Assembly: GCF_048403405.1 (NCBI RefSeq)
Contig: NZ_CP183129.1
Origin: Escherichia coli
GTDB lineage: Bacteria > Pseudomonadota > Gammaproteobacteria > Enterobacterales > Enterobacteriaceae
Reading direction: 5' to 3' (one strand)
Length of the DNA stretch: 64,000 bases
Position numbers: made by a program. Below, piece after piece: positions 9,500 through 12,400 of the stretch (its first letter is position 1; each line of letters opens with the position of its first letter).

Positions 9500-12400
9500 G
9501 GTTATGCGCTGATGCCTGATGCGGCGCGGGCGCGTCTTATCATGCCTGGAAGTCTGCGCCCGAATCGTAGGCCGCCTCCGCTATATTAACTGGCATTGGC
9601 AAATTACTCGTCACTACCTTTATTCATGTTTTTTTGGTCTTCATCCGGATAATGTTTTTTTAGATATTCCAGGACGTTTTTATTGACCTTGTGTTGCGTA
9701 TACACCCACCCTTTCCAGTAATCAGGCTGGTCCAGGTAAACTTCTGGCGGAATGGTGAAATCAGAAAGCGTTAACCATTCGGCTAACAGATCGGGGTTTC
9801 GTTTCTGGATTAACTGCAACAGCATAATCAGTGACATAGCTGAGGCAGGAGCCGTACTATCGCCACTTAAATATTTCCACACTGTTGACCGGTTCGAACG
9901 AAAAAGGATCGGTAGCAATGCCCGGTCCAGATTCATTTCATTAAAAATCTTCTCAAATTCATTCATTTAAATTTTCCTGCCTGGCGTAAACCTCTTAAAA
10001 ATTGAGATTTATCAAAGAAACGCATTTTAGCACACATCAGGAACCGGTTCACGTTTAGTCCAGAAACAGAATTTATTTCGCTTATCAAAACAAGTCTTTA
10101 CTCTTTTTTACATTGAAAGAGCACAAAATGATTTTCGATTTTATTTATATAAGAAACATTTTTTGTTTCTTATTGGTTGTGTTTACGCTTACACCAGACA
10201 AAAATGCGCTTTACATCACACAAATGGCGGCGTAGATTTCGATTAAATTGCAACGCAGTTTATTTCTTAAAACAATATTATTTGTTTCTTATAGAAACAT
10301 TAATGCGACTTATTTTGAACAAGAGAAAATGAATGAAAACTGTAAACGTAGCTTTACTGGCACTCATAATTTCAGCAACATCCAGCCCTGTTGTTTTAGC
10401 TGGTGATACCATTGAAGCGGCGGCAACAGAGCTTTCAGCCATTAACTCTGGCATGTCGCAATCGGAGATTGAGCAGAAGATTACCCGCTTTTTAGAACGC
10501 ACAGACAACAGCCCCGCTGCGTATACCTATTTGACTGAACATCACTACATCCCTTCTGAAACACCTGATACCACTCAGACTCCCACTGTCCAGACAGATC
10601 CTGACGCAGGACAAAAAACCGTTGCCGCTACAGGTGATGTACAGACAACCGCCCGTTATCAGAGCATGATCAACGCCCGACAGTCTGCGGTAACTGATGC
10701 CCAGCAAACGCAAATTACAGAGCAACAGGCGCAGATCGTAGCCACACAAAAAACGCTCGCCGCGACTGGAGATACGCAAAATACTGCGCATTATCAGGAG
10801 ATGATTAATGCCAGACTGGCGGCTCAAAATGAGGCTAATCAGCGCACTACCACGGAACAAGGGCAGAAAATGAATGCACTGACAACCGATGTGGCAGCAC
10901 AACAGCAAAAAGAAAGGGCTCAATACGATAAACAAATGCAAAGTCTGGCGCAGAAGTCTGTCCAGGCACATGAGCAAATTGAAAGTCTGAGACAAGATTC
11001 CGCACAAACGCAGCAACAGTTAACCAACACGCAAAAACGGGTCGCAGATAACAGCCAACAAATTAACACGCTCAATAACCATTTCGATTCTCTGAAAAAC
11101 GAAGTTGAGGACAATCGTAAAGAAGCCAATGCGGGAACTGCATCTGCCATCGCTATCGCCTCACAACCACAGGTGAAAACCGGTGACTTGATGATGGTGT
11201 CAGCGGGAGCGGGAACGTACAACGGTGAATCTGCGGTGTCTGTAGGAACATCTTTTAATGCCGGAACGCATACGGTACTTAAAGCAGGTATTTCTGCGGA
11301 TACACAATCTGATTTCGGTGCGGGTGTCGGCGTGGGATATTCGTTCTAATTTTAACAGCAATTTCTTATTCGCAATTTTCCGTACATTATTTAAGGTTAA
11401 CAATGATGAATAGCTCCATTAAATCGTTTTCCCTGCTGGCGGTTATATTACTGGCTGGCTGTAGTTCACCCACTTCCCGCATCGCAGATTGCCAGGCGCA
11501 GGGCGTCAGCCATGACACCTGTTATCTCGCAGAACAACAGCGTCAGGCGGCTATTTTAAGTGCATCAGAAGCGCAGGCATTTAAAAATGCAGAAGCCGCA
11601 CAACATGCCCAGGCCGCTAAAAAATCTATTTATAAAGGATTTGGCATGACCTTTAGAATGAGCAGTAAGAACTTTGCTTATCTCAATGATTCATTATGTG
11701 CAATTGATGAAGACAATAAAGATGCCACTGTTTATCAGTCAGGTCTTTATAACGTCATTGTTTATCACCACACGGGAAAAGTCGCCTTAATGAAGGAAGG
11801 TCAGTTTGTGGGTTATTTAAAATGAAAGAGCAAAGGAAAATCCCCCTGACGCATATTATGATTATCGGTGCGTTTATTTTTGCCTTCTTGCAAGTGGTGT
11901 TATTAGCCTCCCTGGTTCACGCTGTGAATGTTAACAACGAAATCCAGGAAGGCTTATTTCAGTCGGGGCGCATTATGGTAGAAAGTTTGCAGCATATTCT
12001 TTCGGTGCAAACGGGGATTAACTGATTTTCACCCCGCCCGATGATGACAGCAGCCGGAGAGATTTTCGATAATCGGGCAGTCGGCGCTGTCATCGCCAGG
12101 GCAGGCATTCGCCAGCGCCAACAGCTGGTTGCGCATGGATTGCAGTTCTTCGATATGTCGCTCGATCTCCGCCACTTTCTCCAGGGTGCGACGTTTGACG
12201 TCGGCACTGTGACGCTGCGGATCGTTAAACAGATTCACCAGTTCGCCGCTCTCTTCCAGGTTAAAGCCCACCTGGCGCGCCTGGCGCAGTAAGGTCAGTT
12301 CGTTGAGATGCTGCTGCGTGTAGGTTCGATAACCATTTTCGCTGCGCATCGGCGGCGTCACCAGCCCCTTCTCTTCATAGAAGCGAATGGCTTTGCTGGT

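Follow-up and report, generated by a model that had tools for sequence, protein, structure and literature searches.

The accessory segment that separates ybbJ from cueR in part of Escherichia coli raises the question of whether its largest gene encodes a cytoplasmic transcription factor, as the published name GmrA implies, or a protein of the cell envelope, as the sequence suggests. We analysed one copy of this segment in a window of 64,000 nucleotides from E. coli contig NZ_CP183129.1 (assembly GCF_048403405.1); all coordinates below are positions in this window unless another locus is named. The segment is the known E. coli accessory island OI-29 / S-loop 43. We consider it probable that the island is a four-gene cassette in which a headless trimeric autotransporter and an accessory lipoprotein stand under the control of an XRE-type regulator, and that the motility effect ascribed to the autotransporter, if real, is indirect. 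The list of open reading frames (ORFs) contains four island genes, of 120 amino acids (aa) on the minus strand and of 338, 140, and 67 aa on the plus strand, and it reproduces exactly the positions of all four in an earlier reading of the bare sequence (the original prediction). RefSeq labels the products as a hypothetical protein, a 'YadA family autotransporter adhesin', and, for the two further genes, hypothetical protein or lipoprotein. The plus-strand genes and the parts of the largest product are as follows.

10333-11349, plus strand: predicted headless trimeric autotransporter (type Vc), short allele of 338 aa; also z0639, ECs0548, 'Saa-like', and 'GmrA'
10333-10401, plus strand: Sec signal peptide, residues 1-23, read directly as MKTVNVALLALIISATSSPVVLA and followed by GD at the predicted cleavage site
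10402-10557, plus strand: conserved N-terminal domain of ~50 aa, residues 24-75, in place of a YadA head and followed by a Pro/Thr-rich linker
10900-11166, plus strand: continuous heptad coiled-coil stalk, residues 190-278, running into the anchor
11167-11346, plus strand: YadA-type membrane anchor, residues 279-338, with four β-strands per chain and an aromatic last residue (...GVGVGYSF)
11403-11825, plus strand: 140-aa lipoprotein, orthologue of O157 z0638
11822-12025, plus strand: 67-aa membrane protein; the N-terminus is basic and a single helix (Kyte-Doolittle maximum 2.76, residues 14-28) spans the membrane

The predicted 338-residue trimeric autotransporter

The C-terminus of the 338-aa protein matches the Pfam family YadA_anchor (PF03895) over residues 279-338 and model positions 1-60 of 60 (E = 6.1e-12), which is the sole significant domain of the protein; the same family is again the sole significant Pfam domain of the O157-like allele (E = 2.6e-11). 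In phmmer searches, the last 95 residues matched the anchor structures solved for AtaA, Hia, and YadA (PDB 9vnj, 2gr7, 3emo, and 2lme), AtaA being the best PDB match (9vnj, E = 2.6e-7); against the constructs of AtaA and Hia, the alignment begins at residue 244. The period-2 amphipathicity of the anchor was reached by 6 of 500 shuffled sequences. Ahead of the anchor, the power of the stalk at the 3.5-residue hydrophobic period was reached by none of 500 shuffles, and the a/d register of the coiled coil reads RMSISLVIFVAA / YLALTTNLLNGI. At the opposite end of the chain, the signal peptide consists of a basic n-region, a hydrophobic core with a Kyte-Doolittle maximum of 2.10 (residues 8-22), and V-L-A at positions -3 to -1, and it is kept in all length alleles. 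The mature protein contains no further hydrophobic segment and no Cys, is rich in Gln, Thr, and Ala, and carries a net charge of -13, with a passenger pI of 4.9. Pfam, phmmer, hydropathy, and periodicity thus agree with the initial description of a 338-aa protein composed of a signal peptide, a coiled-coil stalk, and a YadA anchor. On the basis of these three elements, the product would be a trimeric autotransporter, assembled from three chains and displayed on the cell surface.

The absence of an obvious head domain, pointed out when the sequence was first read, is also seen at the profile level, as neither the window allele nor the O157-like allele has a YadA_head, YadA_stalk, or ESPR match in Pfam. 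The YadA head and stalk repeat domains are typical of trimeric autotransporters and are not obligatory. The N-terminal domain that takes the place of the head has no Pfam match either, and it is conserved across the alleles and in the first of two Pseudocitrobacter autotransporters. Residues 24-120 match just 15 representative clusters among 1.84 billion proteins, so that the domain appears to be family-specific and rare.

The protein had been called small for a trimeric autotransporter, which is true of the window allele at 338 aa but not of the family, in which the Escherichia alleles span 325-600 aa. These are in-frame length alleles of 325-345, 436, 457-480, 497, 530, and 577-600 aa, built from coiled-coil modules and spread over E. 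coli, E. marmotae, E. ruysiae, and E. whittamii, and such in-frame, repeat-module length alleles are typical of surface fibres. There are no tandem DNA repeats within the short-allele gene; the repeat modules become visible only at the protein level, between alleles. Furthermore, NadA of Neisseria, DsrA of Haemophilus ducreyi, and ApiA/Omp100 are proteins of 270-400 aa consisting mostly of coiled coil ahead of a YadA anchor, so size alone is not unusual. No sequence relationship of these to the window protein is seen outside the anchor. None of the three is known to have such a lipoprotein partner or an XRE-type divergent regulator.

In two strains with long alleles (loci L011 and L012), the 'YadA-like family protein' annotated by RefSeq/PGAP is restricted to the C-terminal 349 aa (L011 3087-4136 and L012 3169-4218). 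The uninterrupted ORFs extend from ~2328 to 4133 and from ~2416 to 4218, respectively, and encode 594-600 aa including the signal peptide and the N-terminal domain; the start of the long-allele gene is probably mis-annotated in both.

The lipoprotein linked to the autotransporter

The 140-aa lipoprotein possesses a lipobox (LLAG↓C) with Ser at +2 and a conserved Cys30/Cys40 pair, and it is predicted to fold into a long helix followed by a C-terminal eight-stranded β-barrel domain of ~65 residues. By the Lol +2 rule, Ser at this position predicts a sorting signal of the outer-membrane type. The start of the 67-aa gene overlaps the lipoprotein stop codon (ATGA), and the two genes would therefore be translationally coupled. 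Both products had been proposed at the outset as a lipoprotein and a small membrane protein; the lipobox and the single hydrophobic segment are readable, and hydropathy agrees. The 67-aa gene is unannotated in EDL933. A homologue occupies the equivalent position in E. whittamii, Pseudocitrobacter, and metagenome locus L006 (43% identity to the Pseudocitrobacter one). None was found downstream of the more distant autotransporter-lipoprotein pairs, and homologues are limited to the Escherichia, Pseudocitrobacter, and L006 cassettes.

One genome per species was scanned with an alignment of the lipoprotein family, which gave 33 loci, and the ORFs of these loci were then subjected to an iterated search. 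The gene immediately preceding that of the lipoprotein, in the same orientation, encodes a YadA-anchor protein in each of nine species: Pseudocitrobacter, E. whittamii, Enterobacteriaceae UBA5654 (a metagenome-assembled genome), Phytobacter massiliensis, Yersinia aleksiciae, Rahnella rivi, Enterobacter chuandaensis, Enterobacter asburiae, and Lelliottia nimipressuralis. Pantoea conspicua also has an anchor gene, at a distance of 1.9 kb from the lipoprotein gene. Altogether, about half of the ~20 full-length lipoprotein homologues have a YadA-anchor neighbour, and in about half of the Enterobacterales species with such a homologue the anchor gene directly precedes it. The chromosomal contexts of these pairs are unrelated, one lineage carrying the four-gene cassette between fetA and qmcA, which argues that the autotransporter and the lipoprotein form a conserved pair. 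The passengers of the partners vary widely (that of Yersinia is a Pro-rich protein of 290 aa), and the link would therefore be with the anchor or its pathway and not with a particular passenger. The functional link between lipoprotein and autotransporter that was proposed from the window is thus favoured by their conserved adjacency in other genera, and this gene linkage suggests a helper role for the lipoprotein.

Several features of the wider family were observed in the same loci. Lipoproteins of ~68 aa occur in Buttiauxella, Atlantibacter, Pseudomonas, Aeromonas, and other genera (L027, L029, L031-L035, L037-L039, L041, L044, and L045), never beside an autotransporter, and share only the N-terminal Cys-x9-Cys motif R-x-A-x-C-x3-G-[VI]-S-x-D-T-C-Y-x-A-E-Q-N-R-Q. 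The window lipoprotein looks like this module joined to a β-barrel domain. In Pseudocitrobacter faecalis (L003 1801-5532), two tandem YadA-anchor genes of 633 aa and 588-608 aa stand ahead of the lipoprotein gene, and the cassette is situated near a large serine recombinase gene, a neighbour that hints at how the cassette moves. Homology of the lipoprotein to MliC/PliC was considered and rejected, with no MliC Pfam match in 19 members and an hhalign alignment to E. coli MliC that covers the signal peptide and lipobox only. The NCBIfam matches to TraV, XAC1346, and Lpp-like families were also set aside, since none reached its curated cut-off and all covered the region of the signal peptide and helix only.

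The lipoprotein had been likened to SadB, a comparison of which at most a functional analogy survives, since sequence, fold, gene order, and sorting signal all differ. In the case of SadA/SadB (Salmonella; the UpaG/EhaG locus in E. coli), an enterobacterial trimeric autotransporter likewise shares an operon with a small lipoprotein, the lipoprotein combines an N-terminal helical region with a C-terminal β domain, and the whole pair is missing from K-12. However, SadB is an inner-membrane trimeric lipoprotein encoded upstream of SadA, with a MATH/TRAF-like C-terminal domain of ~100 residues (PMC3953254), whereas the window lipoprotein is encoded downstream, has Ser and not Asp at +2, and ends in the smaller eight-stranded barrel. 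It shows no sequence or fold similarity to SadB/YajI, which consist of a coiled coil and a MATH-like domain. The autotransporters differ as well, SadA being a giant adhesin with head domains and the window family being headless. The autotransporter gene for AtaA of Acinetobacter sp. Tol 5 is immediately followed, within its operon, by that of an accessory protein, the periplasmic and peptidoglycan-binding TpgA, an arrangement shared with the window. TpgA homologues contain a BamE-like domain and, in some cases, also an OmpA-like peptidoglycan-binding domain (2026 preprint), but neither domain was found in the window lipoprotein. The survey of autotransporter neighbourhoods in the same preprint was restricted to proteins with a YadA head domain and identified no helpers other than TpgA and SadB; the headless window family would have been excluded from its dataset. 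Whereas SadB and TpgA are the only helper types known for trimeric autotransporters, the conserved and unrelated lipoprotein partner in Escherichia, Enterobacter, Yersinia, Rahnella, and others provides a concrete new helper candidate.

In the mechanism that we propose, the XRE-like 120-aa protein would control a sigma-70 promoter from which the autotransporter, the lipoprotein, and the 67-aa gene are co-transcribed. The Sec signal peptide would take the autotransporter chain to the periplasm, and the β-barrel assembly machinery (BAM) would assemble three C-terminal YadA anchors, with four strands each, into a single 12-stranded barrel. The acidic coiled-coil passenger, rich in Gln, Thr, and Ala and tipped by the ~50-residue family-specific domain, would then be displayed on the cell surface. 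The lipoprotein would most likely act as an accessory for the biogenesis or stability of the autotransporter, or as a co-functioning surface component, analogous to SadB or TpgA and unrelated to either, and the 67-aa inner-membrane protein would be a lineage-specific addition. The identity of the parts is well supported: gene content, insertion site, signal peptide, coiled coil, anchor, HTH fold, conserved gene linkage, and correspondence to z0638-z0640 all come from the analysis itself, whereas trimer formation, surface exposure, the helper role, the operators, and an indirect path to motility are inferred.

GmrA: transcription factor or envelope protein

OI-29 of EDL933 comprises 2,643 bp and carries z0638, z0639, and z0640; S-loop 43 of Sakai is the same island, and its ECs0548 was listed as a 'Saa-like protein' in 2007. 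The source of this label is Saa (autoagglutinating adhesin of Shiga toxin-producing E. coli), which, like Eib, is an E. coli YadA-anchor protein with a coiled-coil stalk, but the family-specific and rare N-terminal domain sets the window protein apart from both. Yang et al. (2018) named z0639 'GmrA' and described it as a transcriptional activator that binds the fliA promoter (PMC5826968). When the primers of that study were mapped onto the window, those for the deletion of gmrA were found to bracket the 338-aa ORF, one ending at 10332 and the other starting at 11349, and those for expression and cloning to start at ATGAAAACTGTAAAC (MKTVN...) and finish at ...GYSF. The z0638 primer falls at the junction of the lipoprotein and the 67-aa gene, and the one for z0640 lies a short way upstream of the 120-aa gene. 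The 338-aa gene is therefore z0639, and GmrA is the YadA-anchor protein. The island is accordingly not the uncharacterised module of the original prediction; both it and its autotransporter annotation were already known, and the system is not of a new kind. That the sequence is at odds with the published function of GmrA had gone unnoticed, and the interest of the locus lies in this conflict and in the candidate partner lipoprotein family. In the literature library that we searched, no paper with 'GmrA' also contains 'trimeric autotransporter', and the label of a horizontally acquired transcription factor has been taken up in at least five later papers.

Deletion of gmrA reduced the fliA, fliC, and motA transcripts and flagellation with flhDC unchanged, the effect was epistatic with fliA, and deletions of the orthologue in eight strains behaved alike (PMC5826968). 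Several observations weigh against an envelope autotransporter with a dedicated lipoprotein and an indirect effect on motility. In the same study, gmrA alone restored motility, electrophoretic mobility shift assays (EMSA) gave specific shifts with competition on the fliA promoter and none on the flhDC promoter or rpoS, and chromatin immunoprecipitation with quantitative PCR (ChIP-qPCR) showed a 7.75-fold enrichment at the fliA promoter (PMC5826968). Furthermore, the OI-29 deletion mutant had no adherence defect on HeLa or Caco-2 cells, so that an adhesin role would be hypothetical, and expression of the island was ~100-fold lower to undetectable after 3 h on HeLa cells (PMC5826968). On the side of the lipoprotein, about half of the full-length homologues are without a neighbouring autotransporter, and none of the 13 short homologues, which cover the N-terminal region only, has one; the lipoprotein is thus not obligatorily tied to an autotransporter.

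The deletion, complementation, EMSA, ChIP-qPCR, epistasis, and eight-strain results speak for a bona fide cytoplasmic transcription factor that acts directly on the fliA promoter and activates flagellar class 3 genes, with the YadA-anchor similarity irrelevant or indicating a second, moonlighting location. We regard this as very improbable, as it has to contend with a canonical cleavable signal peptide, a full-length YadA anchor, and an acidic pI of 4.9. The predicted signal peptide, membrane anchor, and acidic passenger do not conform to a cytoplasmic location or to a basic DNA-contact surface, and the helix-turn-helix (HTH) fold of the island belongs to the product of the neighbouring z0640. 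No significant DNA-binding domain was found by Pfam in the window or O157-like alleles; the lone match of DNA-binding type, TMF_DNA_bd (E = 0.079 and 0.16), lies inside the coiled coil amid many weak coiled-coil matches, and NCBIfam returned autotransporter and SMC-type coiled-coil matches only. We suspect that the TMF_DNA_bd match is the 'putative DNA-binding domain' which that study took from CDD and shows in its Fig. S3B (PMC5826968). The constructs of both DNA-binding assays were likely mislocalised. The EMSA protein, obtained from soluble extract, had His6 at its N-terminus, ahead of the intact signal peptide, and the ChIP protein, expressed from pTrc99A, carried a 3xFLAG fused straight after the terminal Phe (PMC5826968); both designs are expected to disturb the export or assembly of an autotransporter. 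As the protein is predicted to be exported, is acidic, and has no significant DNA-binding domain, the GmrA label is hard to reconcile with its sequence. A cytoplasmic activator binding the fliA promoter is probably not the direct molecular function of GmrA, and direct binding of DNA by the native 338-aa protein has a low probability; the EMSA and ChIP experiments themselves are not refutable computationally.

If the motility phenotype is real, an indirect origin in the envelope is more likely and would reasonably reconcile it with the sequence. An envelope autotransporter might raise class 3 expression, with flhDC unaltered, through hook-basal body completion, FlgM export, or envelope stress, which we hold to be possible and still rather unlikely as a full account. 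In the FlgM-FliA checkpoint, the retained anti-sigma factor FlgM lowers FliA-dependent class 3 transcription, and the pattern of lowered fliA, fliC, and motA, unchanged flhDC, and fewer flagella is the one that FlgM retention would give; moreover, all of the sequence evidence puts the 338-aa protein in the envelope. However, a load of outer-membrane protein usually represses flagella instead of stimulating them, and the reported specificity of the EMSA and ChIP results would stay unexplained. It is also possible, if doubtful, that three things hold together: that the lipoprotein family, joined by the 67-aa protein in Escherichia and Pseudocitrobacter, forms a third partner class, that the autotransporter affects class 3 flagellar genes from the envelope, and that GmrA is misassigned. 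If so, a partner class specific to a headless enterobacterial subfamily would have been invisible to the 2026 survey, and adhesin and motility would be coupled. Either the regulatory model for the motility of enterohaemorrhagic E. coli needs revision, or the autotransporter has a remarkable second role. Alternatively, the lipoprotein might function independently, for example as an inhibitor of the MliC/PliC/ACP-like kind or as a β-barrel lipoprotein that binds a ligand, and travel with the autotransporter without being its helper; we rate this as possible but rather unlikely. Finally, the cassette might be an inert leftover of horizontal transfer, silenced, with H-NS bound to its AT-rich promoter, and functionless in every condition, as could be read from the AT-rich control region, the low reported expression (20-96 reads per kilobase per million), its drop to 0 on HeLa cells, and the failure to find an adherence phenotype. 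Such inertness is highly unlikely in our judgement, because all four ORFs are intact in the strains inspected, the autotransporter varies in length without loss of the reading frame, different genera share the promoter and the order of the genes, and the island is kept in other Escherichia species as well as in a quarter of E. coli genomes.

Control region and boundaries of the island

The remaining features of the island and its flanks are the regulator gene, the control region that separates it from the autotransporter gene, and the two junctions.

9604-9966, minus strand: 120-aa XRE-type HTH protein (predicted fold), divergently transcribed, orthologue of O157 z0640
9967-10332, no strand: AT-rich divergent control region of 366 bp with 29-32% GC
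10149-10173, no strand: perfect palindrome ATAAGAAACA-N5-TGTTTCTTAT with AGAAACA/TGTTTCT half-sites, a candidate operator
10210-10238, plus strand: sigma-70-like promoter TTTACA-17-TAGATT
9420-9590, no strand: left junction of the island, with palindromic repeat units resembling repetitive extragenic palindromes (REP) and bacterial interspersed mosaic elements (BIME), between the ybbJ stop codon and the 120-aa gene
8961-9419, plus strand: ybbJ, left flank
12029-12436, minus strand: cueR, right flank

The 120-aa protein adopts a predicted five-helix HTH fold of the XRE (Cro/C1) type without a significant family profile, as Pfam gives only MqsA_antitoxin (E = 0.12) and NCBIfam gives none. Among regulators of the XRE/Cro-C1 type with C-terminal helical extensions, such as Aca2, the MqsA C-terminal domain, and HigA2, it has no significant profile match, and, unlike the settings of these proteins, the island lacks a partner gene for a toxin or an anti-CRISPR protein. 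Of the eight AGAAACA heptamers in the 64-kb window, five fall within 10062-10299 and are partly arranged as perfect palindromes, and the promoter hexamers occupy columns that are invariant across six loci, including Pseudocitrobacter. The AGAAACA/TGTTTCT half-sites are plausible operators. The XRE fold, the conserved divergent position, the clustered palindromes, and the conserved promoter point to a regulator, and the 120-aa protein probably controls the operon via the AGAAACA palindromes. The HTH gene is somewhat more widespread than the 67-aa gene and in one case stands beside the lipoprotein without an autotransporter. In this case, Serratia silvae (L023 4300-5483), the XRE-like gene and the lipoprotein gene are divergent neighbours, and an autotransporter gene was not detected between the two, so that a regulator-lipoprotein pairing is possible without the autotransporter.

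Comparison of the junctions with K-12 indicates that the accessory block of 2.6 kb (9420-12028) fills the gap between the convergent stop codons of ybbJ and cueR. In K-12 MG1655, the cueR stop is located at 514400 and the ybbJ stop at 514401, with 0 intergenic bases; the block is therefore an insertion relative to K-12, and its predicted absence from the K-12 junction is borne out. The extent first given, 9604-12025, includes the four ORFs but begins ~185 bp too far to the right, missing the REP-like repeats. The REP-like stretch at 9414-9574 matches many sites in nearly every E. coli genome (median 21 per genome). As the insertion took place at or inside the 3' end of ybbJ, the last residues of YbbJ (9390-9419) read ...IRAVIA before the stop codon and differ from those of K-12. 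The flanks have a GC content of 55-60%, the island genes one of 38-51%, and the divergent intergenic region one of 29-32%; the description of the block as AT-rich is thus correct in part.

The island is present at a coverage of at least 80% in 1370 of 5426 complete E. coli genomes (~25%). It is carried by O157:H7, O55:H7, O145:H28, and many lineages of extraintestinal pathogenic E. coli, in which a variable surface fibre would be relevant to colonisation and as an antigen. A plasmid origin was considered and rejected, since the plasmid relatives match only the C-terminal anchor and stalk region at <60% identity; two 73% matches in the plasmid search belong to chromosome-sized records of 4.9 Mb. 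Nor is there a sign of a prophage origin, as PHROGs gave nothing meaningful for the three small proteins.

In E. coli PapRG-06-5, isolated from a baboon (L011 4936-6159), an additional gene for a 407-aa hypothetical protein lies between the 67-aa gene and cueR. In the window, the segment directly upstream of cueR (12433-36548, minus strand) encodes an HlyD-type adaptor (12433-13608), a type I secretion ABC permease/ATPase (13605-15767, minus strand), and an ORF of 6925 aa (15771-36548, minus strand), where K-12 has ybaT adjoining cueR. This segment is presumably the giant RTX-type adhesin island of O157, and cueR is thus flanked on both sides by accessory surface-protein islands.

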